Positions 22,320 through 35,961 of a DNA stretch of 64,000 nucleotides are shown one piece after another (positions within the stretch are counted from its first letter, which is position 1; each line of letters begins with the position of its first letter). This DNA is from an uncultured Planctomycetota bacterium. GTDB taxonomy: Bacteria; Planctomycetota; Planctomycetia; Isosphaerales; Isosphaeraceae. Made by a program: the position numbers and the translations under genes. The stretch lies in the NCBI GenBank assembly GCA_963737655.1, contig CAVTTN010000002.1:3008001-3072000 (forward strand). Direction: 5' to 3'. Under the pieces are notes generated by a model that searched no databases, was not told where the DNA came from, and saw only the letters and a list, made by a program, of their open reading frames with translations.

Positions 22320-23309
22320 TCAGGGTCCGTGGGGATCGCGCCCGGACGTGCATTCGATCAGGAGTTCGCGGAAGCGCTCGCCGGACGGCGAAAGGTCTCG
22401 CCCCTCCCGGCCGATGGCCCGTCGGCAGATTAAATGGAGCCGGATCGGCCGAAATTGCTCGGCCCGGAGCGGACGGGACCACAGGCCGGGTCCGAACCGC
22501 TCGCCGGCCGATCTCGGGACGACCCCGACCCCCAGCCCCTCGGCCACGAACGCCAGGATGGCCGACCAGCCGCCCACCTCGATCGCGATCTTCAGCCCAT
22601 CGGTCACCCCGGCCGCGTCCAGGTCGCGGTCAATCTGCCCCCGGACGGCGGAATCCGGCTCGGGGAGGACCAGGGGGATAGTCCGGAGGGCCTCGGCCGG
22701 CACGGGCCCTTCGGGGAGGGCGCGAAGCGCGTCAGCCCAGTCTTCACCCGCTTTGAGGCTGGCGACGAGGACGAGCGGATCATCGCGGAGATGATCGACG
22801 TGCAAGGATCGGCGGGCGATGGCGCGAATCTCGGCCTCGTCGTGGGTCACGGTGGCCAGGTCGAGCAGCCCGCTGGCCACCCCCTCGATCCGTGATCGCC
22901 CCCTCGTCGTGGAAATCCTCGCCTGGACCTCCGGCTTCTCGCGACGGAGGCGTCGCAGGGCCTCCAGGGCGTAGGTCGCCGCGCCCTCCTGACCGCAGGC
23001 GAACGCGAACTCGGCCTCGCCGCGAGTCCCAGCGGAGAATCGCCCCAGGGCCCGGTAGCGCCGAACCAGCTCGTGGACCGAGGGGAACATCCGCCGCCCC
23101 TCCTCGGTCATCCCCCACGTCTTGCCGTCTCGTTCCAGCCAGGGCGAAGCCACGGACGGACCCGGCCCCTGCAACTGCGACATCCTCTTGGACATGCTCG
23201 GCTGATTGATCCCCAGCCGAGCCGCCGCCTTCGAGGCGTCCCCGCCCTCCTCGATCAGCGTGACGAACGTTTCCAGCAGCTCGAAGCTCAGACTCGGCGA
23301 TCGTGGCAT
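22320..23309 (-). CDS. LysR-family transcriptional regulator
   Basis: LETFVTL..ASKAAARLGINQPSMSKRMSQL HTH; LDLA, AFVAEGLGVGVVP substrate-binding region. Confidence 0.88.
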   Translation of the reverse strand: MPRSPSLSFELLETFVTLIEEGGDASKAAARLGINQPSMSKRMSQLQGPGPSVASPWLERDGKTWGMTEEGRRMFPSVHELVRRYRALGRFSAGTRGEAEFAFACGQEGAATYALEALRRLRREKPEVQARISTTRGRSRIEGVASGLLDLATVTHDEAEIRAIARRSLHVDHLRDDPLVLVASLKAGEDWADALRALPEGPVPAEALRTIPLVLPEPDSAVRGQIDRDLDAAGVTDGLKIAIEVGGWSAILAFVAEGLGVGVVPRSAGERFGPGLWSRPLRAEQFRPIRLHLICRRAIGREGRDLSPSGERFRELLIECTSGRDPHGP

Positions 23310-23340
23310 GGCGTTAAGCCCCCCGCCATCCGCGGAATTC

Positions 23341-23382
23341 ATTCTTTTTTTTCCAATATCTGGCCGTTCATCGCGTATAGCT
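23341..23382. promoter_or_regulatory. Candidate LysR box (ATT-N11-AAT) and -10-like TATAGC in the divergent intergenic region
   Basis: ATTctttttttttccAAT at 23341-23357 fits T-N11-A; AT-rich island between LysR and the Nudix genes. Confidence 0.4.
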
Positions 23383-23462: not shown

Positions 23463-23945
23463 ATGACGATGCCCACGTTCCCCGAAGTCCGCGTGGCGGC
23501 GGTGGCGATCACCCGAGGCGACGAGTTCCTGACGACCTTCAACGGCCGGTGGGGCGGGTTCACCTTGCCGATGAGCAAGAGGCGGACCTGGAGCGACCCG
23601 CAGGTGCCGGGGTCGGAGCGGCACGAGGAAGCCGGCGACGCCGCCATCCGCGCCTCGGCCGAGGCCCTGGGCCGGCCCCTCGGGCCCGACGACCGGCTGG
23701 AGAGGCTGGAACTGATGGAGCTCGAACCGTACCACCAGTCCAACCGCGACGGGGCCTGGAAGAGCTACCGCTTCGAGGTCTTCCGGCTCCGGTTGGCGGC
23801 CGATACCCGGCCCTCGGTCGCGCCCGGGGCGATCTTCGCCTGGCTGTCGCTCGACGCGATGAGGGAGTCTCGGCCGGTCTCGCCCACGGCGATCCGGCTC
23901 GCCGAGGCGATCCGAGGGGCCGCGGTGCTCCGGGGCGAGGTCTGA
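23463..23945 (+). CDS. Nudix-fold protein with degenerate Nudix box
   Basis: VAAVAITRGDEFL...WGGFTLP...EEAGDAAIRASAEALG; the REUXEE motif is not intact. Confidence 0.6.
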   Translation: MTMPTFPEVRVAAVAITRGDEFLTTFNGRWGGFTLPMSKRRTWSDPQVPGSERHEEAGDAAIRASAEALGRPLGPDDRLERLELMELEPYHQSNRDGAWKSYRFEVFRLRLAADTRPSVAPGAIFAWLSLDAMRESRPVSPTAIRLAEAIRGAAVLRGEV

Positions 23946-23984: not shown

Positions 23985-24437
23985 ATGAGAACGTCCGAAG
24001 CCGCCCTGGCCGCGATCCGAAACCGGCCGGGCGGCGAAACCTTGTGGCTGGCCCGCTGGAACGAGGCGTGGGGCGCGTTCCACTTCGTCGGCGGCCACCG
24101 CCTCGACGGCGAATCGTTCCGCGACTGCCTGACCCGCGAGCTGTTCGAGGAACTCGGGCTGAGCGAGGGGGCCGATTTCACGGTCGGGACCGCGCCGCCG
24201 GTTCGGTTCGATTACGTCGGCTGGTCGCGCCGGGCCCAGGCCGAGACCCGCTATCGGATCGAGATGTTCCCCGTCGATCTCCGCGAGCCCGACGGCCGGG
24301 CGATCGCGAGTCGGACGATGACTCGCTGGCTCGATCGTGAGACAATGGACCGAGGCCGATGCGTCGATGGCCTGCCCGTCAGCCCGACGATGGGACTCCT
24401 GATCGCCAAGGCCAAATGGACCGAGACGGCCCCCTGA
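23985..24437 (+). CDS. Nudix hydrolase
   Basis: Canonical box G-HRLDG-E-SFRDCLT-RELFEELGL. Confidence 0.88.
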   Translation: MRTSEAALAAIRNRPGGETLWLARWNEAWGAFHFVGGHRLDGESFRDCLTRELFEELGLSEGADFTVGTAPPVRFDYVGWSRRAQAETRYRIEMFPVDLREPDGRAIASRTMTRWLDRETMDRGRCVDGLPVSPTMGLLIAKAKWTETAP

Positions 24438-24453
24438 CGAGGAGCCCGCGACG

Positions 24454-27400
24454 ATGTTCGACGACGACCGACCGCCGATCCTCCACGACCTCTTCGTGAG
24501 TTACGCCCACATCGACGACCAGGGCGAGAACGCCGGCCACGTCTCGGCCCTCGTCTCCGCCATCGAGGCCGATTACCGACGCTTCGCCGGCTCGCCGTTG
24601 CGCGTGTTTTTCGATCGCGACGAGATCCGGGCGATGGACGACTGGGAAGGCCGGATCTTGACGGGCTTGCGGCACTCCAAGATGATGGTGGCGATCCTTT
24701 CGCCCTCCTATTTCGCCAGCGCCTATTGCCGGAAGGAATGGGAATACTACGTCGAGACCGAGCTGGCCCATGCCTTACCCGGCGATGGGATCGCGCCGAT
24801 TTATATTCTGACTCACCCGAGCTTCGATGCCGATCCGGTCGAGGAAACGCTCCGCCGCTGGGTCCACGACCTTCGGAAGCGGCAGTACATCGACTGGAAG
24901 GACTTCTGGCCCCACGGCTACAGGGCCCTGGAGCGGGAGGACGTCCGCCGGAGGCTGGACCACCTTCCCGGCCAGATCGCCGAGCGGTTGAAACGGTCGA
25001 AGATCCGTCAAGAAAGCCCTCACACCGTCCCCCTGCCGAGCGAGCATTTCGTCGGCCGTCGCGACGAGATGCAGACGCTTCGGCACGACCTGATCCGCCG
25101 TCAAATCGGCGCGATCACGGCCCTCCACGGCATCGCGGGCATTGGCAAGAGCATGCTGGCGTTCGCGTATGCGTGGGGCTACGGCTACGAGTATCCCGGG
25201 GGCCGGTTCCTGATCCAGGCGGCGAACCTGGGAGACCTCGCCTCGGGCGTGATCGCCCTGGCCGAGCGGAAGGGCGTGACGCTCTCCGAGGCCGAGCTGC
25301 GAAGTCCCGATTTGGCTCTCGATCGGGTCAAGAAGGCGTTCGAGGAAGGCCCGGCGGCGCTGATCGTGATCGACAACGTGGACGATCCGGCCTTGCTGGA
25401 CGTCCAGGCGCGGGAGCGGGCGTTGCCCCGGGGGGATCATATCCACGTCCTGGTGACGACTCGCGTATCACCGGAAAACCTGCCTCGCATCCATTGCCTG
25501 CCGCTCGACTCCCTCGAACCGCAGGACGCCCTGAGCCTCCTGAACGAGTTCCGCCCGATCGCCGACTCGCCCCAGGACGACGAATGGAAGGCCGCCCTGG
25601 AGATCGTCCGCCGCCTCGACGGCCACGCTCTGGCCCTGGAGGTGGTGGCGGTCTCGCTCCGCGAGCATCCCGAGGTGTCCTATCGCGAGATGGCCCGGTC
25701 TCTGGAAGAAAACGGCATCTCGCTCCTGGAGGAAGACCTCGGCCCGAGGCGAGGGGCAAGCTCACCTGGCACCGCGAAACCTGCATCGGCAAGCTGCTCG
25801 AACCGACCTGGAATTCGCTCTCGGACGAGGAGAGGAGGGCCGTCGAATACGCCGCGATGCTGCCGCCCGACAACGTGCCGCTCCCCTGGCTCCGCGAACT
25901 GCTCCTCAAGGACTTCCCCACGCTCGCCCAGAGCCGGATCGGCGACCCGATCGCCCGCCTCTTCCAGAAGCTCGAACGCCTCCGCCTGATCGTCGCCACC
26001 GGCCGAGATCGCCAGGACCAACCCCAACCCTCCACCGCCCCCACCCAAACCCGAATTGCCCGGATGCACCGGCTCGTCGGCGACGTGATCCGCCGACAAC
26101 TGGGGAGGGTTGAGGAAACGGCGCGGGAAGAGGTGGTCCACAAGTTCGCCTACGGCCGGGCCGAATGGATCAAGGCGAACTGGGGCAAGGCTGGCCTGGG
26201 CTGGGAAGTGCCGCCTTTGCGTGAGGTGACCCTCGGTCTGATCGACCGAGTCGAGTATCGCGGCGTTTACATGGGAGATTGCATCTCAACGGCATTACTC
26301 CACAGCGGAAGGATGTTCGAGGCCATCTCGCTCTGTCGTCGATCTTCGGAGGCCCTGAAAAAGCTTCTTGATGCAGAACCCGAAAGCAATTTTTACTCCC
26401 GTGAACTGTCAGTGACCTACAACAAGCTGGGCGACCTGGCGCGTTCGTCGGGCGACGCGGCCGGGGCGCGTCGGTACTACGAGGACGGCCTGGCGATCCG
26501 GCGGCGGCTGTCCGACGGCGCGCCCGAGAGCGCCGACTACGCCCGCGACCTGTCGGTCAGCTACAACAAGCTGGGCGACCTGGCGGTGTCGTCGGGCGAC
26601 GCGGCCGGGGCGCGTCGGTACTACGAGGACGGCCTGGCGATCCGGCGGCGTCTGTCGGAGGGCGCGCCCGAGAGCGCCGACTACGCCCGCGACCTGTCGA
26701 TCAGCTACGATCGGCTGGGCGACCTGGCGCGTTCGTCGGGCGACGCGGCCGGGGCGCGGCGGTACTACGAGGACGGCCTGGCGATCCGGCGGCGGCTGTC
26801 CGACGGCGCGCCCGAGAGCGCCGACTACGCCCGCGACCTGTCGGTCAGCTACAACAGGCTGGGCGACCTGGCGCGTTCGTCGGGCGACGCGGCCGGGGCG
26901 CGGCGGTACTACGAGGACGACCTGGCGATCGCGCGGCGGCTGTCCGACGGCGCGCCCGAGAGCGCCGACTACGCCCGCGACCTGTCGGTCAGCTACGATC
27001 GGCTGGGCGACCTGGCGCGTTCGTCGGGCGACGCGGCCGGGGCGCGGCGGTACTACGAGGACGGCCTGGCGATCCGGCGGCGGCTGTCCGACGGCGCGCC
27101 CGAGAGCGCCGACTACGCCCGCGACCTGTCGGTCAGCTACGATCGGCTGGGCGACCTGGCGCGTTCGTCGGGCGACGCGGCCGGGGCGCGGCGGTACTAC
27201 GAGGACGGCCTGGCGATCCGGCGGCGTCTGTCGGAGGGCGCTCCCGAGAGCGCCGACTACGCCCGCGACCTGTCGATCAGCTACAGCAAGCTGGGCGACC
27301 TGGCGCGTTCGTCGGGCGACGCGGCCGGGGCGCGGCGGTACTACGAGGACGGCCTGGCGATCGCTCGGCGTCTGTCGGAGGGCGCTCCCGAGAGCGCCGA

Positions 27401-27887
27401 CTACGCCCGCGACCTGTCGATCAGCTACAACAAGCTGGGCGACCTGGCGCGTTCGTCGGGCGACGCGGCCGGGGCGCGGCGGTACTACGAGGACGGCCTG
27501 GCGATCCGGCGGCGGCTGTCCGACGGCGCGCCCGAGAGCGCCGACTACGCCCGCGACCTGTCGGTCAGCTACAACAGGCTGGGCGACCTGGCGCGTTCGT
27601 CGGGCGACGCGGCCGGGGCGCGGCGGTACTACGAGGACGACCTGGCGATCGCGCGGCGGCTGTCTGACGGCGCGCCCGAGAGCGCCGAGTACGCCCGCGA
27701 CCTGTGGGTTTCCTACAGCAAGATGGCCCTTCTTGCCGAGAATGCCGGGGATTCGGCCGGGGCGCTGGCCTGGTGGCGGCGGGTTTGGGAGACGTTGACC
27801 GACATGAAACGGCGGGGGATGCACATCTCGCCCGGGGATGAGGCTTATCGACAGGGCTTGGAGGATCGCTTCGGATTTGGCCGGTGA
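24454..27887 (+). CDS. TIR - NB-ARC (STAND) - TPR NLR-like protein (frameshift near 25745)
   Basis: TIR LFVSYAH..VFFDR..ILSPSYFASAYCRKEW; FVGR, Walker A GIAGIGKS, Walker B LIVIDNVD, LVTTR, GHALAL, MHRLV; 48-aa TPR array. Confidence 0.9.
26394..27689 (+). repeat. Nine tandem 144-bp (48-aa) TPR units
   Basis: Unit YARDLS[VI]SY[NDS][KR]LGDLARSSGDAAGARRYYED[GD]LAI[RA]RRLS[DE]GAPESAD, in register from 26394 to 27689. Confidence 0.97.
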
Positions 27888-28086
27888 GGGATCGTTCTGA
27901 GCGTGCCCGGAGGGGGTAGGACGGAGCGGTCCCGTCGTTTCCTGGTGGGATGGCATCTCAGTCGGGCAGGCCCTGGCCTGCCTGGCCTTGCGACGACGGC
28001 AGGCCGGGGACTGCTTGGCGGGAAATGGCTGAGTCCCGGCCGATTTTGGACGGTTGATGCGTTATGTTCTCCGGGGAGTTCCGACC

Positions 28087-29564
28087 ATGCCGGTCTTCTG
28101 GACGATCCGGGCTCAGCGGCACTTGCGGCAGGCGTTGGCCGAGGAGCTGGGGCGCGAATTTGCCCCGGCGAGGCCGGTTTCCTCGGCGGGTGAGGTGGGA
28201 GGGAGTTGCCCTGGGGTCCTGGAGGGGCGGATGAGGCACCTCAATGCCATGCTGGCCGAGGCGTTCGGCCAGGCGACCGTCGTGGTCAAGGACCAGGTGA
28301 TCGGCTATCGCCGCAAGAAGGATCGATTCACCCTGATGGTGGACGTTTTCGACCCCAAAACCGCCGCGCCCCTCGGCTCGTTCGTCGTCAAGATCGGCCC
28401 CGAGGACGAGATTCGCGAAGAGGTCCGGGGCTGGGACTGCTGCCGGCCCCCCGGATTGCGGCATGACCTGGTTCTGCTCACGCTCGAACCGAGGGAACCC
28501 GTCGATCATGAAGGCCGGTCGTGGATGTGCCTCGTGTACGGCGACGCCCAGCAGTTCCTCGGGGTGGCCGAGACCCGCCCGTTCGAAGACGTGATGCTCG
28601 AATGCGTCCGCGACGGCGTGCCCAAGCTGCTGTCGATCCATGTCGTGATCGGCGAGCTTTACGACCGGATCGGCCACTTGCTCTATGGTCAAGCCTTCAT
28701 CGACAACCCCGCCCACGCCGACTACGTTCTGGATGTCCCCCGGCTCGACGACGGGCTGAAGGCGTGGGAGGTCGATCCGGCCTGCCAGGCCGCCCGCCGA
28801 GACGCGAGCGTGGTCCAGGGAAAAGTTCCCTATCTCGACCCGGTCGATTACCTCCGCTACGTGCAGAAGTATTCGGCCCATCGCGACGGCCGGGGAAACG
28901 TCGTCCCCCGCGCCAGCCCGATGCCCCGAAGCCGGGCGATTTACCGGCCCCGTTCCCGGTCCCGAGGGTCGTCGATGTCGTGCCGAGGATGCTTCGCGGT
29001 TGCGCTCATGGCGACCTCCACGGCCGGAATATCCTGGTGGGGATCGTCCGCGACCAGGCGATGTGGCCGACGGTGTTCGACTACGAAGACATGGGGCCGC
29101 GGAACCTGATCGGCTGGGACTTCGTGAAGTTGGAGACCGAGATGAAGGTCCGGGCCTATCCCGACGTCTTCCGGGGCAAGGAGCCGATCCCGTTCGCCCA
29201 GGCGATCCGCGAGTTCGAGGCCGACCTGGACGCCCGGACCGAGACATGCCACCTGACCCGCTCGTGGCCCGAGCCGGATGACCCGACCCTGGCCGCCGAT
29301 CGATTAAGGTCGATCCTCCTCGCGATCCGCCGGATGGCCTCGCAGCACCTGGGGATGATCCACGGGCGCCCGAACGACTGGCTGGAAGAGTACTATTTCC
29401 TCCTGGTCTGCTACGGGGTGATCACCGCGAGGTTCGAGAACCTCCAGCATCGCGAACGGATCGGGGCCCTGATCTCGGCCGGGGTGGCGGCGGCCCGATT
29501 GAGCTGGCCCCGGGCCGTCGAGCTGGCCGAACTCAAGCTCCCGCCGCCGACCGACCCCGAATGA
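28087..29564 (+). CDS. APH/phosphotransferase-fold kinase, TCAD9-like (frameshift near 28908)
   Basis: FVVKIG..EIREE, HGDLHGRNILV, VFDYEDM, WDFVKLETE; GGGGAG RBS. Confidence 0.75.
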
Positions 29565-29618
29565 GGCCGTCGAAAACCGCGAAGGGCCACGGCGGCCCGT
29601 CGGACCCGAGGAGTCCTG

Positions 29619-30446
29619 GTGATGAATGCGAATAACCCGCCCTGGATCGATGCCGTCCTCCGGGCCCCCTTCCCCAGCTACCGCGCCCCGATGGCGCTGG
29701 CCGGCGAGCTCGGCCGATCGGGCCGGGCCGACTCCCGCGCCCAGGCCATCACGCTCTTGAAGGCGCTCGCCGAGCGATATCCCTATGCCCTGGCGATCCG
29801 CCAGGAGCTCGTCTTCGTGATGATGGAGGCGAACGAGGACGTCGAGCTGATCCTCCACCGGCTCGAACGGGAATTCGCCAACCTCGATGAGGAGACCCTG
29901 TGCCGCTGGGGCCGCCTCTTCAAGGAGAAGGGCGATGGCCTGGCCCGGACGCTCCAGCCGGACCAGGCGGAACGATACTACCGGAAGTCCCTGGAAAAGT
30001 ACGATCGAGCCTATCGGATCCGCGACGGCCATTACCCGGCGATCAACAAGGCGACGCTCCTCCTGATCGTCGGGTCGCTCCGGCCGTTATCGCCCGGGGC
30101 ATCCGAGCCTTCGGAGTGCCTCGAATCGGCAAAGCTGGCGGAGAAGATCCTCACGAGTCGCGGTTCCTGGCGGGCCGAGCTCCCGGCCGATGAGGCGATC
30201 TGGTTCCCCGCGACCGAGGCGGAGGCCCACCTGCTCCGCCGGGAATGGGCCGAGGCGGCAGTCCTCTATCGCCATGTCCTGGACCAGGATGCGCTGAATC
30301 CGCACTCGCGGGCGACCATGCATCGCCAGGTCGAGCGAATCCTAAGCTGCTTCCGCAACCTGAACGTCCCGCCGGCGCCCCCGTTCGACGACCCCGGGAC
30401 GTTATTCGGGGCCGAGGCCGGTCTGGACCCGTTGGCCTCCTCGTGA
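29619..30446 (+). CDS. TPR-S / MAP3K TRAFs-binding (DUF4071)-like TPR protein
   Basis: EETLCRWGRLFKE..YDRAY..HYPAINKATLLL..WFPATEAEAHLL..AAVLY pattern. Confidence 0.72.
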   Translation: MMNANNPPWIDAVLRAPFPSYRAPMALAGELGRSGRADSRAQAITLLKALAERYPYALAIRQELVFVMMEANEDVELILHRLEREFANLDEETLCRWGRLFKEKGDGLARTLQPDQAERYYRKSLEKYDRAYRIRDGHYPAINKATLLLIVGSLRPLSPGASEPSECLESAKLAEKILTSRGSWRAELPADEAIWFPATEAEAHLLRREWAEAAVLYRHVLDQDALNPHSRATMHRQVERILSCFRNLNVPPAPPFDDPGTLFGAEAGLDPLASS

Positions 30447-30471
30447 ATCCTCTGGGATACAGGATCTGCTC

Positions 30472-30765
30472 ATGTCGTATCGTCCTCAGCCCATCGATAC
30501 CTCGAAGACCGAGCTGCCCGATTCGCTCGTCGCCCTGACGGAGCGGCTGGCGGAGAACACGCACGACGTCTGGGCCGCGCATCGACTGTCCGAGGGCTGG
30601 TCGCTCGGTCCTCGTCGCGACGACGCCTCGAAGACCCATCCGTGCCTGGTCCCGTACGCCGATCTGCCCGAGTCCGAGAAGCAGTATGACCGTCAGACGG
30701 CGATCGAGACGCTCAAGGCGGTGCTCGTCCTGGGCTATGCGATCGTCCCGAGGCTGGAGGATTGA
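30472..30765 (+). CDS. Standalone RyR (ryanodine receptor repeat) domain protein
   Basis: YRPQPIDTS..L..LTERLAENTHDVWA..R..EGW..G..RDD..KTHPCLVPYADLPESEKQYDR..A.ETLK..GY.I. Confidence 0.93.
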   Translation: MSYRPQPIDTSKTELPDSLVALTERLAENTHDVWAAHRLSEGWSLGPRRDDASKTHPCLVPYADLPESEKQYDRQTAIETLKAVLVLGYAIVPRLED

Positions 30766-32613
30766 TCGATGACCGAGACGACGGCGGCCCCGGGCCCCGG
30801 AGGTGGCCCCACGCGATCGATTACCACTTCGCGAACCTCCTCCGAAGGCTGGGCGGGGCGTGGTTCCCGTCGCTCGTCGCCCTGGCGATCCTCGCGCTGG
30901 CCCTGGGCTGCTGGGGCTACCACGAATTCGCCGTTCAGAACCGGAAGGTGCCCTCGGCCACGATCACGCTCTACCGGTCCTTGCAACTCTTCGCCCTGGA
31001 AATGCCCGAGACGGAGACCGAATACCCGCTGGCCCTGGACGTGGCCCGGTTCCTCGCGGCGTTCGTCTCGTTCTCGGCGGTCCTGGGCGTCCTGGGGACG
31101 ATCTTCGAGGCCAGGGTCCAGGCCGCCCGGCTCTGGGTCCTGGGGAGGCATCACGTGGTCCTCTGCGGCCTGGGCGAGAAGGGGGCCGAGCTCGTCCAGG
31201 TCCTCAGGAAGGACCGGCATTTCGTCGTGGTCATCGAGCCGGACGCGACTCACGAAGACCTGTCGAGATGCCGGGCCCTTGGGGCCGTCGTCCTGACCGG
31301 CAACCCGACCGACTCCTGGCGTCTCAAGAAGGCGAGGGTCCATCGGGCCGACGTGCTGATGGCGATCGTCCCGGGAGACGACCGGCTGAACGTCGAGACG
31401 GCGATTCTCGCCCATGCGATCTGCCGGAGCCCTCGCCATGGAACGCTGACGTGCGTCCTCCAGGTCTCCGACCCGGACCTCACCACGGTGGTCCGCAAGC
31501 ACCCGATGGCGACCGAAGGGGGCGACGGCTTCGACCTCCAGCCGTTCCGCATCGACGATGCCTGCGCCCAGGCCATGCTCCGCGAGGCCCTGGTCGGCGG
31601 CCGGGCGCAAGTCCCGGGCGGATCCTGGTCGTCGGCATCGGTCCGGGAGCCAGGATGGGCGAGAGGCTGATCCTCAGGGCCGCCAAGGACTGGCACCTGG
31701 AGAATCCCGACGGGCCGAAGCTGCAGATCGACGTCCTGAGCCCCGGGGCGACCGTCGAGACGGAGAGGATGCGGACCTCGTACCCGCCTCTGGACCTCGC
31801 CTGCGAGCTCCGACCCCACGACGTGGCCCCGGAGCCGCTCTCATTCGTCGAGACGTTGGATCGAATCCACGGGGCCCGCTCCTCGTCGCGGCGTTCGTTG
31901 GCCTGGACGACGAGGGCGCCGCCCTGATTGCCGCGGACCGGCTCCGCGATGCCCTGCCCAAACTCGTCCCGGTCATCGTCCGGACGATCGAGAGGGATGC
32001 CGGCCTCGGCGCCCTGATCCGGGAACGAGGCGCCGAGGGGCTGATCGCCGTCGGCTCCAAGGACCGCGCGTTTCATCTCGCCGCGTCGCTCCGGCCGGTC
32101 CAGGAACTTCTCGCGCAAGCCGTCCACCACGAGTACCACCGCCACCAGGGCGGCCCGTCGAGCCCCTCCGGGAGCTGAGAAACCGGCCGTTCGCTTCTGG
32201 GAAGACCTCGACGAGGACTATCGCGAAGCCAGTCGAGCCCAGGCGCGCGACATCGCCCGGAAGCTCGGCCTGATCGGTCTCCGCGCCGTCACGTCTCCCG
32301 AGGGTTTTTTCCCCCTCCATCAGTTTCGGGAGGACGAGATCGAACGCCTCGCTCGAGATGAGCACGATCGCTGGTGCCAGGAGCGGAGGAGCCGGGGCTG
32401 GACCTACGGCGAAATTCGCGACAACCGAAAGAAGCTCCACCCCAACCTGCTCCCCTGGGACGATCCCCGCATCACCGAGCCCGTGAAGGAGATCGACCGC
32501 AACGCGATCCGTCGCCTCCCGGCGATCCTCGCCCGAGCGGATTACCAGATCGTGCGGATCGGCCCCGCGCCCGGCCCGACGAGCCTGGGGCGTTCGAGTC
32601 TCGGGAGAAATGA
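30762..32613 (+). CDS. Membrane channel-like protein: TM / pore-like helix / TM, TrkA-N (RCK) domains, C-terminal RyR domain (frameshifts near 31612, 31872, 32165 and probably 32570)
   Basis: TM helices flanking LYRSLQLFALE; HVVLCGLGEKG..VVVIE; RILVVGIG..MGERL; frame read by hand WEDLDEDYREASRAQA..EIERLARDEHDRWCQERRSRGWTYGEIRDNRKKLHPNLLPWDD; 3' end uncertain. Confidence 0.78.
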
Positions 32614-32638
32614 GATCGGTTTGGTGGGGTTGCATCGA

Positions 32639-33910
32639 TCACCCGCCTCGCGTCAGGTCGAGAAAGACGATCGAGGAAGGATTTCCGACCGGTGTATAGC
32701 TCCCGGTGAATTTCAGGTGGCCGGTTGTGCGATCCACGAGAAAACTCGTGATGTTGTCTCCTCTCTGATTGCAGCAGAAGAGGAATCGTCCGGACGGATC
32801 GAACGAGAAGCTCCGCGGATAATCGCCCCGGGTCCATTCCTCGCCGGCGAATGTCAACTCGCCGTCGGGGCCGATGGAGAAGAAGGAAATGCTGTCATGG
32901 AGCCGATTCCCCGCGTACACGAATCGTCCGTCGGGGGAGACCAGGACCTCCGAGCAGAAGTTACTGCCCTGGAAGCCCGGGGGGAGGCTGGAGATCGTCC
33001 GCCGATGCGTGAGGCGCCCCGTCGCGGCCTCGAAATCGAAGAGGGCGATGGTCGAGGCTTCCTCCTGGATCGAATAGAACCAACGGCCGTTGGGGTGAAA
33101 GTGAAAATGTCTGGGCCCGTCGCCGGGAGGGAGGGTCACCTGGGGCGTTCCCGCCGGTTTCAGGAGGCCGGCTCGCTCGTCGAACCTCCAGACGAAGAGA
33201 CGGTCGAGCCCCAGGTCCGCATGGATCGCGAAACGGCCGGAGGGGTCGGCCTGGATCATGTGAGCGTGCGTTCGGTCGTGGCCGCTGAACGCGAAGCTGC
33301 CCGGCGGGGCCCCCGACGCTCGCGCGGGGCCGATCTCGCCGACATCGTGCTTGACGTCGGTGGGATCGCCCAGGCGGCCGTCGGGCCGGACGGGCAAAAC
33401 GGCGACGGAGCCGCCGAAATAGTTCGCCACGAGGACGAACCGACCCGAGGAGTGGACGGACACGTAAGTTGGGCCGGCGCCCCCGGAGCGAACCGAGTTG
33501 AGCGGCGTCAAGCGGCCATTCACCCGATCGATGGCGAAGGCTCCGACCGTGCCCTCCGCATCGTCGCCAACCCGATCGGTCTCATTGGCCGAATAGAGGC
33601 GCGTCCCCTCGGGATTCAGGGCGAGGCAGCTTGGGCTGGTGCCCATCTCGAGGACGCCGGAGGCCGTCATCGCCCCGGTTGAACGATCGACCCGAAAGAG
33701 ATGGATGCCGCGTCCGTTGCCGGGGGGCAGGTCCACCTGGGTCCGGGGAACGTCTCGGAGAGGCGAGCTGAAGGTTCCGACGTAGGCGACCCACGGCGGA
33801 CCGTTCTCGTCCGCTCCGGCGGGGAGCCCGGGATCGACCAGCGGGGCCGTCGCCGCCAGCGCGGTGGAGGCCCGAAGAAACGAGCGACGCGACCGGTCCG
33901 ATGAAGTCAT
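32639..33910 (-). CDS. Tat-exported lactonase (6-phosphogluconolactonase / cycloisomerase 2 family)
   Basis: SRRSFL; YVGT, VLVANYFGGSV, HAHMI, PGDGPRHFHFHP, YPRSF. Confidence 0.9.
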   Translation of the reverse strand: MTSSDRSRRSFLRASTALAATAPLVDPGLPAGADENGPPWVAYVGTFSSPLRDVPRTQVDLPPGNGRGIHLFRVDRSTGAMTASGVLEMGTSPSCLALNPEGTRLYSANETDRVGDDAEGTVGAFAIDRVNGRLTPLNSVRSGGAGPTYVSVHSSGRFVLVANYFGGSVAVLPVRPDGRLGDPTDVKHDVGEIGPARASGAPPGSFAFSGHDRTHAHMIQADPSGRFAIHADLGLDRLFVWRFDERAGLLKPAGTPQVTLPPGDGPRHFHFHPNGRWFYSIQEEASTIALFDFEAATGRLTHRRTISSLPPGFQGSNFCSEVLVSPDGRFVYAGNRLHDSISFFSIGPDGELTFAGEEWTRGDYPRSFSFDPSGRFLFCCNQRGDNITSFLVDRTTGHLKFTGSYTPVGNPSSIVFLDLTRGG

Positions 33911-34107: not shown

Positions 34108-35961
34108 CTAGCGGGCGAAGTTCAGGCCCGGATCTTGCGCGGGAGAGCTGACGAGGCGGAAGTTGAAGTGGTCCGCGTCCTTCCAGGCGAGGTTGCCGGC
34201 GAGTGCGCCGTCCTGCCCGGTCTTGGCGGCGAGGGAGAGGACGCCGTCGGTGAGCGACGACGAGCCGGCGATGGTCGAGGCCGGCTTGCCCGGCCCGGCC
34301 GCGGTCCAGGTGAAGCCGCCGTCATCGCCAATCACCAGGGTGATCTTGGCTCCCGGGACCGGCTGGGCGGTCCAGGTCCCCGCCAGCTTGCCCTCGGGGC
34401 CCGGAGCGGCGGCCGAAGCCGGCGCGGAGGCGGGCTCGGGCGATCCGGCCGGGTGGTACTGCGCGACGAGCTGGGCCGAGAGGGTGTCTCCGGGCTGGAG
34501 CTTCGTGATCTCGCGGAACTGGCGGACGGCGTTCTCGTCCTGGCCCTCGCACAGGTAGATGTAACCGAGGACGAACCGGGCCGGCGCGGAGTTGCGATTG
34601 GCGCCGACATAGGCCTCCAGCTGGCGGAGCTGGGTGGTGAACGTGGCCACGTCGGGGTACATGCCGCTGAGGGTCGTCCAGTCCCAGCCGGGCCCGACCG
34701 ACAGGACCGCGTAGAGCGGGGCGGCGGCCTGCTCATACTTGCCCTGGGCGAAGAGGGTCAGCGCGAGGAACTGATGGGCGGTCGGATCGTTGGGAGACTG
34801 GGCCAGGGCCTGCTGATCGAGCGTGAGGGCCTGGTCGTAGTTGCCCGCCATGAACGCCTGGCGGGCCCCGTCGAAGGCGGAAGCGGCGGAATCGGCCGCG
34901 GCCGGTTCGGGGGGAGGCGCCGTGGTGCTGATCGGCTGCGAGTAATTCGAGGCCTGGGCCGGCGCGTCGCCTTGCTGGGGAGCGTTCGCATTGACCTGGG
35001 CGTTGCCGCCACCGCCACCGCCGCCGCCGCCGCCAGGATATCCGCCCGAATAGGGGTTGCTGTAGTTCGAGTAGCCCCAGCCGTATTGAGGAGAGCCGGT
35101 GCCCCAGGCCCCGACCCCGCCGTAACCCATCGGGTAACCGCCCATCCCCCACGCACCGGAGTTGTTGTTCCAGGAGTTGGCGCCCACGGAGGCGCCGAGG
35201 GCCGCGGCTCCGAGGTTCGAATAGTTGTTGTTGCGATTCGCGTAATTCGCCCCGGCGGCGGCCCCAACGGCCCCGGCGCCGTTGTTCGGAAGGTAGCCGT
35301 TGTTGCGATTTGAGTAGCCCGCGCCCGCCGCCGCTCCGACGGCCCCGGCGCCGTTGTTCGGCAGGGTCGAATTGTTGCGGTTGGCGTAGCCCGCGCCCGC
35401 GGCGGCGGCGCCGTTGTTCGGGAGCGTCGAGTTGTTGCGGTTGGCGTACCCGGCGCCCGCGGCGGCTGCCCCGTTGTTGGGCAAAGTGGAGCTATTCCGG
35501 TTTTCATAGCCGGCGCCGGCGGCGGCGGCCCCATTATTGGGGAGGGTCGATTTGTTGTTCTTGTTCTCGTAGCCGGCGCCGGCTGCGGCGGCCCCATTAT
35601 TGGGGAGGGTCGATTTGTTGTTCTTGTTGGATGCCCCCGCGCCGGCGGCCGCCGCCCCTGCGTTGGGATAGCTGGAGCCGTTGCGGCTGCCTCCGCTCCC
35701 GCCGGACGGGTACTGCCTCTGGCCCGAGGAGCCGCCCGCCGACGGCGGGCGGGGCTGGCTGAACGACGGCGAGTGTCCCATCGACGAGCCTCCCATCTGT
35801 CCCCCGCCGTAGCCCCCGCGCTCGCCTCCGCCGCCGCCTCGCTCGCCGCCTCCTCCGCTGTATCCGCCGCGACCGCCACCGCGACCCGCCAGGACGTCTC
35901 CGGGGTAGGCCGCCAGCGTTGCGGCGAGGACCAGGGCCGATCTCCACAGATTGCGATTCAT
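34108..35961 (-). CDS. Exported Gly/Asn/Ala-rich repeat protein with TPR domain
   Basis: Signal peptide, RGG-rich start, LPNNGAAAAGAGY repeats, TPR region ARQAFMAGNYDQAL..VLSVGPGWDWTTL. Confidence 0.8.
   Translation of the reverse strand: MNRNLWRSALVLAATLAAYPGDVLAGRGGGRGGYSGGGGERGGGGGERGGYGGGQMGGSSMGHSPSFSQPRPPSAGGSSGQRQYPSGGSGGSRNGSSYPNAGAAAAGAGASNKNNKSTLPNNGAAAAGAGYENKNNKSTLPNNGAAAAGAGYENRNSSTLPNNGAAAAGAGYANRNNSTLPNNGAAAAGAGYANRNNSTLPNNGAGAVGAAAGAGYSNRNNGYLPNNGAGAVGAAAGANYANRNNNYSNLGAAALGASVGANSWNNNSGAWGMGGYPMGYGGVGAWGTGSPQYGWGYSNYSNPYSGGYPGGGGGGGGGGNAQVNANAPQQGDAPAQASNYSQPISTTAPPPEPAAADSAASAFDGARQAFMAGNYDQALTLDQQALAQSPNDPTAHQFLALTLFAQGKYEQAAAPLYAVLSVGPGWDWTTLSGMYPDVATFTTQLRQLEAYVGANRNSAPARFVLGYIYLCEGQDENAVRQFREITKLQPGDTLSAQLVAQYHPAGSPEPASAPASAAAPGPEGKLAGTWTAQPVPGAKITLVIGDDGGFTWTAAGPGKPASTIAGSSSLTDGVLSLAAKTGQDGALAGNLAWKDADHFNFRLVSSPAQDPGLNFAR

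Follow-up and report, generated by a model that had tools for sequence, protein, structure and literature searches.

In a 64,000-nucleotide stretch of contig CAVTTN010000002.1 from an uncultured Planctomycetota bacterium of the Isosphaeraceae (the whole stretch is called the window here), a closely packed island of genes, all on one strand (23985-32613, + strand), ends in a gene for a free 97-aa ryanodine receptor (RyR) repeat and a gene for a channel-like protein that carries RyR repeats of its own. We propose that this is a Thoeris-like conflict island, probably antiphage, in which a TIR protein would make a nucleotide signal and the GsuK-like channel would be an RyR-gated effector; we give this reading an even chance of being right. 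Its ligand, gating, defense role, and division of labor between the RyR proteins are what we infer from the observed domain identities, fold, residue conservation, and gene neighborhoods. The window has a G+C content of ~68% and belongs to a 7.6-Mb genome assembled in three contigs, with a CheckM marker completeness of 87.7%. Feature coordinates are collected in Table 1.

The channel-like gene is broken in the assembly. Its frame-0 open reading frame (ORF; 30762-31670) encodes a hydrophobic N terminus followed by a TrkA_N domain, and its C-terminal RyR motif, EHDRW...GWTYG...KLHPNLLPW (32360-32460), lies outside that frame, as a preliminary description of this DNA had recognized from the letters alone. 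The canonical C-terminal repeat scores 53 bits against PF02026 (cutoff, 27.4) over profile positions 18 to 89, and PF02254 and PF02026 are found together in 14/14 of the longer homologs (509 to 606 aa). An intact 606-aa homolog, P0001, served as the reference for reading through the window gene and for structure modeling. The AlphaFold model of P0001 (alignment A2, 8 sequences; pLDDT, 76.4; pTM, 0.65) comprises a long helix (residues 3 to 47), a short helix at the YxSLQLF segment (57 to 66), a 14-residue loop, and a second long helix (81 to 118), followed by two Rossmann domains and then two C-terminal helical units. Foldseek placed GsuK first (4gx0, 4gx1, and 4gx5; E, ~1e-9), with further matches to TrkA rings, MthK, CASTOR, and Slo1, and aligned ~190 C-terminal columns of the model to the tandem Repeat12 of human RyR3. 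The order of transmembrane (TM) helix, pore helix, TM helix, and then RCK domain is thus seen in the model and in its GsuK and MthK matches, together with the PF02254 match of the window ORF.

The segment LYRSLQLFALE corresponds to the consensus YxSLQLFxLE of 13 family members. A TVGYG-type filter is absent between the TM helices in 13/13 of these members and in the window gene, which bears out the earlier remark that LYRSLQLFALE lacks TxGYG. A PDB sequence-profile search with the channel family matched the RCK and RyR parts only, the pore region finding no match. The family is large, with 27,330 representatives at an E value of ≤0.001 and 5,179 at ≤1e-30; the 150 representatives listed all have E values of ≤1.7e-163, are mostly 550 to 650 aa long, and cover the full profile without interruption. 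The channel-like protein is therefore predicted, from these models and profiles, to combine a two-TM pore with two Rossmann/RCK domains and a tandem RyR pair of its own.

The first repeat of that pair (repeat A) is divergent, with HxxY in place of HxxW and SNR in place of xDR. Its family columns (~437 to 505) were matched to the canonical repeat by hhalign with a probability of 97.5% (E, 8e-12), and the small-RyR hidden Markov model (HMM) matches both repeats in the homolog from genome G007, the one full-length channel homolog found among 40 relatives searched. The free RyR protein matches PF02026 at 122.5 bits (cutoff, 27.4) over profile positions 1 to 89 of 91, in agreement with its earlier description as a textbook repeat, and reaches 80.6 bits against the first repeat of mammalian RyR2; its PDB matches are RyR1-3 repeats and 3nrt. 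The only PF02026 matches in the 7.6-Mb genome are the free RyR and the channel C terminus.

The preliminary description had suggested pairing in trans between the free repeat and the fused one. Under this scheme the free RyR would dock on the channel's C-terminal RyR to form a single Repeat12-like pocket, making the small protein an obligatory subunit. The gene order is compatible with it: the two genes abut, the stop codon TGA of the RyR gene overlapping the TTG at 30762 where the channel-like gene starts, which suggests coupled translation and argues that the two proteins are coproduced. A small RyR gene likewise lies directly upstream of the channel gene in two other loci (L045 and L039; a weak one in L034), a second clear RyR gene is present in 4/6 of the loci found via the channel (again weak in L034), and RyR units work as twofold pairs according to PDB titles and to the available text on the phage proteins RyDEP and RyR Tad, both dimers. 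The channel, however, already carries two tandem repeats, enough for a repeat pair without any partner. Free and channel RyRs from the same locus are no more alike (identity, 0.335 in 9 loci) than those from different loci (0.334 in 72 pairs), and the small RyRs are on average 67% identical to one another across 9 loci, versus 35% for the channels' canonical repeat (repeat B), so that a conserved heterointerface is unlikely. Moreover, a channel lies within 7 kb in only 8/80 small-RyR loci, the second RyR gene of L035 and L036 encodes a 930- to 1,080-aa AAA protein rather than a small RyR, and the recurrent fusion partner of the small RyR is TPR-S, not the channel. We consider docking in trans improbable; the small RyR belongs to a separate, highly conserved family and is probably not the missing half of the channel sensor. 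The predicted complex of the TPR-S protein (A3) and the free RyR scored 0.00, a value obtained without controls and neutral either way.

Two groups of phage proteins allow the RyR residues to be compared with known binders of cyclic ADP-ribose (cADPR). According to the part of each text that is available, RyDEP is a phage PF02026 homodimer that cleaves 2'/3' cADPR via H75 and D117, its pocket also holding W78 and H100, and 6/8 of the tested RyDEP homologs bound signals (PMC13232231), while RyR Tad is a dimeric PF02026 sponge for 2'/3' cADPR whose affinity fell ~100-fold in the mutants H129/W132, H154/K147, and K170/D171 (10.64898/2026.06.04.730250). In the free RyR of the island, H31, W34, H56, and D73 have the spacing (+3, +25, and +42) that the accessible passages quote for RyDEP (H75, W78, H100, and D117) and RyR Tad (H129, W132, H154, and D171). 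None of the 20 small-RyR relatives in alignment A4 departs from H31 or D73, and W34 and H56 are each kept in at least 90% of them. The canonical repeat of the channel has H, W (+3), H (+25), and D (+44). Both RyR units are plausible TIR-linked sensors of NAD-derived nucleotides.

Alternatively, the channel could be gated through its RCK/Rossmann part by NAD+, NADH, ADP, or ADP-ribose, for example upon NAD+ depletion caused by the TIR protein, with the RyR repeats serving assembly or fine-tuning. The GLGEKG motif of the first RCK domain (RCK1) and the Glu after strand 2 are kept in 13/13 homologs (G127, G129, G132, and E150 are invariant in alignment A1), GsuK, the best structural match, was solved with NAD and with ADP (titles of 4gx2 and 4gx1), and the matched TrkA ring binds ATP analogs (4j9v). 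Yet nothing at the C terminus is more strongly conserved than the RyR repeats, which have retained the residues for ligand contact, and RyR domains recur beside TIR genes on unrelated outputs (AAA, Pkinase, and TPR-S-cyclase proteins), as fits a shared sensor domain. Gating through RCK without a sensing role for the RyR repeats seems unlikely to us.

The TIR gene that the preliminary description had placed nearby is indeed present, its TIR domain lying at 24454, 6 kb upstream of the RyR genes. TIR_2 (PF13676; E, 1.7e-14) and NB-ARC (E, 1.2e-6) matches both lie in ORF 24454-25989, and TPR_10 and TPR_12 were matched in the ORF ending at 27887. The N terminus reads DLFVSYAHID...SAYCRKEW; the Glu present in SAYCRKEW may be that of the catalytic-Glu motif of TIR domains. 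By our own HMM, the genome has just one more TIR-like ORF, G000:C2:6924268-6925734 (46 bits).

TIR or DUF4062 genes accompany the channel in 9/13 channel loci (the window, L033, L035, L036, L039, L041, L043, L045, and L056) and in 4/6 of the loci found via the channel itself. The order of genes varies: L033 has NUDIX-TCAD9, TPR-S, small RyR, two further genes, channel, and TIR-Pkinase; L034 has PIN, a weak small RyR, channel, and a SLATT-like protein; L035 has Pkinase-TIR, channel, AAA-RyR, TIR, and DUF4062-FGE-sulfatase; and L036 has AAA-RyR, channel, DUF4231/SLATT, and TIR, all four having been found via the channel. L038 (Acutalibacteraceae) was left out because it matched only the RyR part, and L037 was not counted as a channel locus because it holds a channel fragment only (residues 63 to 264).

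These neighborhoods bear on whether the protein could be a housekeeping cation channel under adenine-nucleotide control that sits beside a defense island by chance, the small RyR being an unrelated nucleotide binder. Such a role would agree with the very large size of the family, with the names "voltage-gated potassium channel Kch" and "NAD-binding protein" given to homologs in the sources, and with the channels of G007 and L051, which have no defense genes nearby (the neighbors in G007 are truB, TetR, and AcrB). It agrees poorly with the sporadic occurrence among relatives (1/40), the missing K+ filter, the tight one-strand gene packing in which the channel is the last island gene, and the TIR or DUF4062 genes in 9/13 loci, TIR being otherwise scarce (2 in the whole 7.6-Mb genome). 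We regard a housekeeping role as very unlikely.

The small RyR was found in 80 related loci, at 49 to 76% identity and in many phyla. A Pfam census of 79 loci took in 178 proteins, those of the ORF with the RyR and of its immediate neighbor on either side; genes at least two positions away from the small RyR were covered by our own HMMs only, and L040 and L081 (antisense ORF chosen) and L114 (no RyR ORF found) count as misses in the census. A TIR gene adjoined the small RyR in 19/79 loci and a DUF4062 gene in 7 more, giving 26/79 with either. TPR-S was fused to the small RyR in 13/79 loci, 7 of these fusions also having an adenylate/guanylate cyclase domain, and adjoined it in 6/79. TCAD9 was fused in 1 locus and adjacent in 5, Pkinase-RyR fusions occurred in 3/79, and the channel was adjacent in 3/79. 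The earlier idea of a nucleotide sensor thus stands as far as the retained ligand residues and the adjoining TIR and DUF4062 genes are concerned, separated from the trans pairing on which it had been built.

Other RyR architectures were seen in the same loci. Proteins of ~750 aa with an N-terminal RyR, TPR-S, and adenylate/guanylate cyclase (L054, L079, L082, L086, L093, L102, and L103), often beside TIR genes, are a single-protein architecture of RyR input and cyclase output. Ser/Thr kinases of ~403 aa with a C-terminal RyR occur in L096 (6074-7282), L100 (6074-7282), and L104 (3930-5141), where they adjoin a DUF188 gene in Halioglobus-type genomes. Proteins of 900 to 1,080 aa ending in one or two RyR domains are encoded at L035:12128-14923 and L036:5720-8956, beside channels and with an AAA ATPase domain, and at L044:1421-4189 and L047:4124-6946, beside small RyRs. 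In L105, the stretch 80-2327, immediately upstream of a small RyR gene and a channel homolog, holds a PT-HINT polymorphic-toxin fragment together with the immunity gene Imm49.

Several observations weigh against the proposed TIR signaling island. Four of the 13 channel loci, G007 included, have no TIR or DUF4062 gene within 7 to 10 kb (L034, L051, L105, and L139), so the channel can exist without a nearby TIR. The counts by our own HMMs, with TIR or DUF4062 in 43/80 small-RyR loci (911 kb) compared to none in 344 kb of contigs of the same-genus genome G001 and two TIR in the whole 7.6-Mb genome, were made with TIR and DUF4062 HMMs built from matches in the same loci, and loci L039 to L118 were found via the small RyR, which is present there by construction. 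The mapping of ligand residues to RyDEP and RyR Tad uses the spacing quoted in the preprints and not an alignment. Among the channel homologs, S, T, or N stands in place of the HP-motif His in 6/13 and N in place of the Asp in 2/13, and RCK1 has an intact GxGxxG...E dinucleotide-type motif that could be the true ligand site. Finally, this assembly shows interrupted frames in the channel, TIR-STAND, and TCAD9 genes alike, with at least six frame changes in 8.2 kb of island and three to four in the 1.85-kb channel gene (Poisson P, 6e-4 for at least six in 8.2 kb and 0.0017 for at least three in 1.85 kb, with a further value of 9e-5); this organism may no longer have a working system.

Frameshift-aware alignment of the channel gene to P0001 over residues 9 to 600 placed frame changes near 31604, 31858, and 32144; with P0002 as the reference, the second was replaced by a compensating pair of shifts, at 31839 and 31888. 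A plot of G+C content at third codon positions (GC3) hinted at a short stretch of frame 0 near 32150-32250, which the homology-guided alignment could do without. At the 3' end, ORF 32483-33682 is open in frame 2, so that the last channel frame has no stop until 33682, while homologs end 5 to 20 residues past ADYxVxR. The lack of a stop in this frame, together with the frame-1 stop at 32611-32613, makes a fourth lesion likely in the C-rich tail, probably an indel in the ggccccgcgcccggcccg run. The four indels and the end of the gene given in the preliminary description agree with these three frame changes, the likely fourth, and the stop. At the 5' end, the sole frame-0 start is the TTG at 30762; the ATG found at 30769 belongs to a different frame and precedes a C/G run (ggcggccccgggccccgg), so an additional indel, a fifth break at the gene start, is possible. 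Read through these lesions, which are all 1-base shifts in G/C runs, the channel is 59% identical to P0001 over 589 positions, has no in-frame stop, and keeps 43/44 of the residues invariant in 13 family members, the exception being L to I.

To gauge the indel rate of the assembly, ORFs of G001, a same-genus short-read-type assembly (820 contigs), were compared to this genome. In a first sample, 39 genes (14,419 aligned residues; some antisense duplicates included) showed 10 frame changes, with a cluster of 3 frame changes in 2.7 kb across two conserved genes (C2:7441963-7444636). A larger, cleaner sample gave 11 frame changes in 74 genes (89 kb), 10 of which were broken, or 1 frame change per 8.1 kb. 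These core-gene samples indicate an assembly indel rate of roughly 1 per 4 to 8 kb. rpoB is intact; rpoC is split between two frames at G000:C2:6635601-6639726, outside the window, in adjacent pieces matching model positions 2 to 1072 and 1041 to 1147. A frameshift in this essential gene points to indel errors in the assembly.

True decay of the island, with the channel, TIR-STAND, and TCAD9 genes as pseudogenes of a system that no longer works in this organism, is a serious possibility that we put somewhat below an even chance. The frame changes in the island and in the channel gene are denser than the 1 per 8.1 kb of conserved genes, and the channel query found no match in the same-genus genomes G001 to G003, so the island is dispensable. 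Against decay, core genes carry indels too in this three-contig, 87.7% complete assembly (rpoC; 10/74 conserved genes), errors cluster elsewhere as well (the 2.7-kb cluster), and the read-through keeps nearly all invariant residues without an in-frame stop and with 1-base G/C-run shifts only. The observations agree equally with true decay and with local clustering of errors, such as an accessory island might show if its coverage were lower; assembly indels are in our judgment somewhat likelier than decay. Many relatives' genomes combine few contigs with low marker completeness (10 contigs, 61%; 20 contigs, 68%), the pattern expected of long-read assemblies with frameshift errors. Confirmed lesions would mean a damaged copy here only, the family still being intact elsewhere, in relatives of ~600 aa.

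If the signaling island is read as proposed, the TIR-NB-ARC-TPR protein, which resembles nucleotide-binding leucine-rich repeat (NLR) receptors, would detect the invader, and its TIR domain would convert NAD+ into a signal of the cyclic-ADP-ribose type. The ~600-aa protein would consist of a two-helix pore like that of GsuK or MthK, two RCK/Rossmann domains, and a Repeat12-like tandem RyR of its own, and this tandem module would bind the signal and open a pore that is not K+ selective, so that the membrane potential collapses and the infection is aborted. The small RyR would most likely be a homodimer binding the same signal. It might buffer or hydrolyze the signal, as a threshold or off-switch akin to a host-side RyDEP, or it might be the sensing subunit of a TPR-S/TCAD9 module; the small RyR, TPR-S/TCAD9, and NUDIX proteins would then bind, relay, or destroy the signal.

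More tentatively, the island could represent a bacterial forerunner of the animal cADPR-ryanodine receptor axis, in which a TIR-made cADPR isomer gates a channel via a Repeat12-type module and the 97-aa RyR, as a host RyDEP-like binder or glycosidase, sets the threshold or resets the signal and belongs to the gene pool from which phage RyR antidefense proteins were drawn. The RyDEP and RyR Tad preprints, both of 2026, show phage RyR proteins binding or cutting cyclic ADP-ribose made by TIR proteins and ask whether the homologous Repeat12 of animal receptors does likewise, and the island would give a small bacterial model for a cADPR-type ligand gating a channel through a Repeat12 module. Host-encoded RyR domains beside TIR and DUF4062 genes would also supply the missing host side of the phage RyR story, carried as they are by a channel-like effector, by TPR-S, cyclase, kinase, and AAA proteins, and by a free 97-aa protein.

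Among known systems, Thoeris type X is the nearest. As described in the available part of its preprint (10.64898/2025.12.03.692087), it couples the TIR protein ThsB to an ion-channel effector, ThsK, with phage protection reported and the signal unknown; the same text gives the type VIII effector ThsI a TPR domain for which Aravind and colleagues had predicted a role in TIR signaling, and we presume this domain to be the Pfam TPR-S. [quoted passage not shown] Unlike in Thoeris, where types I to XI have a simple two-gene layout of thsB plus effector, the TIR domain here is fused to NB-ARC and TPR in an NLR-like protein, and with five or six further genes the island counts six or seven; its effector carries a tandem RyR, and free RyR, TCAD9, and NUDIX genes are present. 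RyDEP and RyR Tad share with the island RyRs the Pfam family and, in the case of the free RyR, the His/Trp/His/Asp spacing as quoted and a small size that suits a homodimer, but the island RyRs are host encoded within TIR islands rather than in phage antidefense loci, and one of them is fused to a channel, with relatives fused to TPR-S, cyclase, kinase, and AAA. The Bacteroides thetaiotaomicron "putative ryanodine receptor" (3nrt and 6uag) is likewise a stand-alone RyR of ~100 aa (E, 1.8e-33 to the free RyR).

The GsuK, MthK, and TrkA/KtrA RCK systems (4gx0-4gx5, 6oly, and 4j9v) have the same two-helix pore followed by RCK with GxGxxG, and GsuK has two RCK/Rossmann domains per chain. In contrast to GsuK and MthK, the island channel lacks TVGYG, has a pore sequence unrelated at the HMM level, and carries the extra Repeat12-like module. 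Animal RyR Repeat12 (human RyR3 848-1055; 6uhh with ATP; 9l9b with dantrolene and ADP) resembles the predicted bacterial arrangement in its tandem repeats, a nucleotide-binding module on a channel; the pore, however, is 2TM/RCK in the bacterial protein and of the six-TM RyR/IP3R kind in animals, and the first bacterial repeat is degenerate. Genes for the conflict components TPR-S and TCAD9 (PF20308 and PF19974) immediately precede the small RyR gene here, and in relatives both occur as fusions with it. The island's Pfam matches include no vWA or MoxR gene, so it is not the vWA-MoxR ternary system from which the TCAD name comes. RyR, TPR-S, and TrkA are absent from the main text of Kaur et al. 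2020 (PMC7159879) as far as it was available, "ryanodine" occurs only among the references in the accessible texts of Kaur 2020 and 2021, and Iyer 2022 is likewise without RyR discussion in its accessible part. In the literature so covered, we found no description of RyR domains as receptors in bacterial TIR systems, which the supplements of the preprints may nevertheless list.

The rest of the island is summarized in Table 1. A plot of G+C content by codon position shows unbroken + strand coding from ~23.4 kb to 32.6 kb, and a scan for promoters and terminators gave no signal above shuffled sequence. The frame-0 translation of the NUDIX gene contains the Nudix-box-like GGHRLDGESFRDCLTRELFEELG. 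The TIR-NB-ARC-TPR gene runs in frame 1 to ~25680, where GC3 switches, and in frame 0 thereafter. For the TCAD9 gene, PF19974 was matched at profile positions 33 to 148 in ORF 28054-29109 and 291 to 418 in ORF 28521-29564, and the translation contains the motif HGDLHGRN.

Table 1. Features of the island and its borders in the window
Feature	Position	Strand	Remarks
LysR-type regulator gene	22320-23342	-	Island border
Second NUDIX-like ORF	~23463-23945		Just upstream of the NUDIX gene
NUDIX hydrolase, 150 aa	23985..24437	+	PF00293 (E, 4.4e-9); first clear island gene
TIR-NB-ARC (STAND)-TPR sensor gene (putative)	24454..27887	+	Two reading frames
TCAD9 kinase-like gene	28054..29564	+	Two reading frames, switch near 28920 (GC3)
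TPR-S protein, 275 aa	29619..30446	+	PF20308 (E, 1.9e-11); intact
Free RyR protein, 97 aa	30472..30765	+	PF02026 (E, 8.4e-36); intact
Channel-like gene	30762..32613	+	~600 aa if read through; broken in assembly
LYRSLQLFALE, short helix between two TM helices	30969..31001	+	Position of K+ channel pore helix/filter
First Rossmann/RCK domain (TrkA_N)	31155..31496	+	PF02254 (E, 4.4e-13), residues 132-245 of frame-0 ORF
Frame change 1	31590..31610	+	Frame 0 to 2, in ggcggccgggcgcaagtcccgggcgg
Frame change 2	31845..31870	+	Frame 2 to 1, near ccacggggcccg
Divergent first RyR repeat (repeat A)	32092..32299 (approximate)	+	HxxY for HxxW, SNR for xDR
Frame change 3	32135..32152	+	Frame 1 to 2, near caccagggcggcccg, inside repeat A
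Canonical C-terminal RyR repeat	32330..32551	+	PF02026 (E, 4.3e-14)
Tail	32560..32613	+	Frame without stop; frame-1 stop at 32611-32613
Lactonase gene	32639-33910	-	Island border

The TPR part of the TIR-NB-ARC gene (26400-27700, + strand) consists of ~10 near-identical units of ~42 aa (ESADYARDLSVSYNKLGDLARSSGDAAGARRYYEDGLAIRRRLS...), with a G+C content of up to 0.75. A LysR-type regulator, found here at the island border, also adjoins the small RyR in two other loci (L039:5934-6932 and L046:5423-6457). Beyond the lactonase gene, 34108-35961 (- strand) encodes a protein of 617 aa whose start resembles a signal peptide and which has long low-complexity repeats rich in Gly, Asn, and Ala (NNGAAAAGAGYxNRNN) and TPRs at its C terminus.

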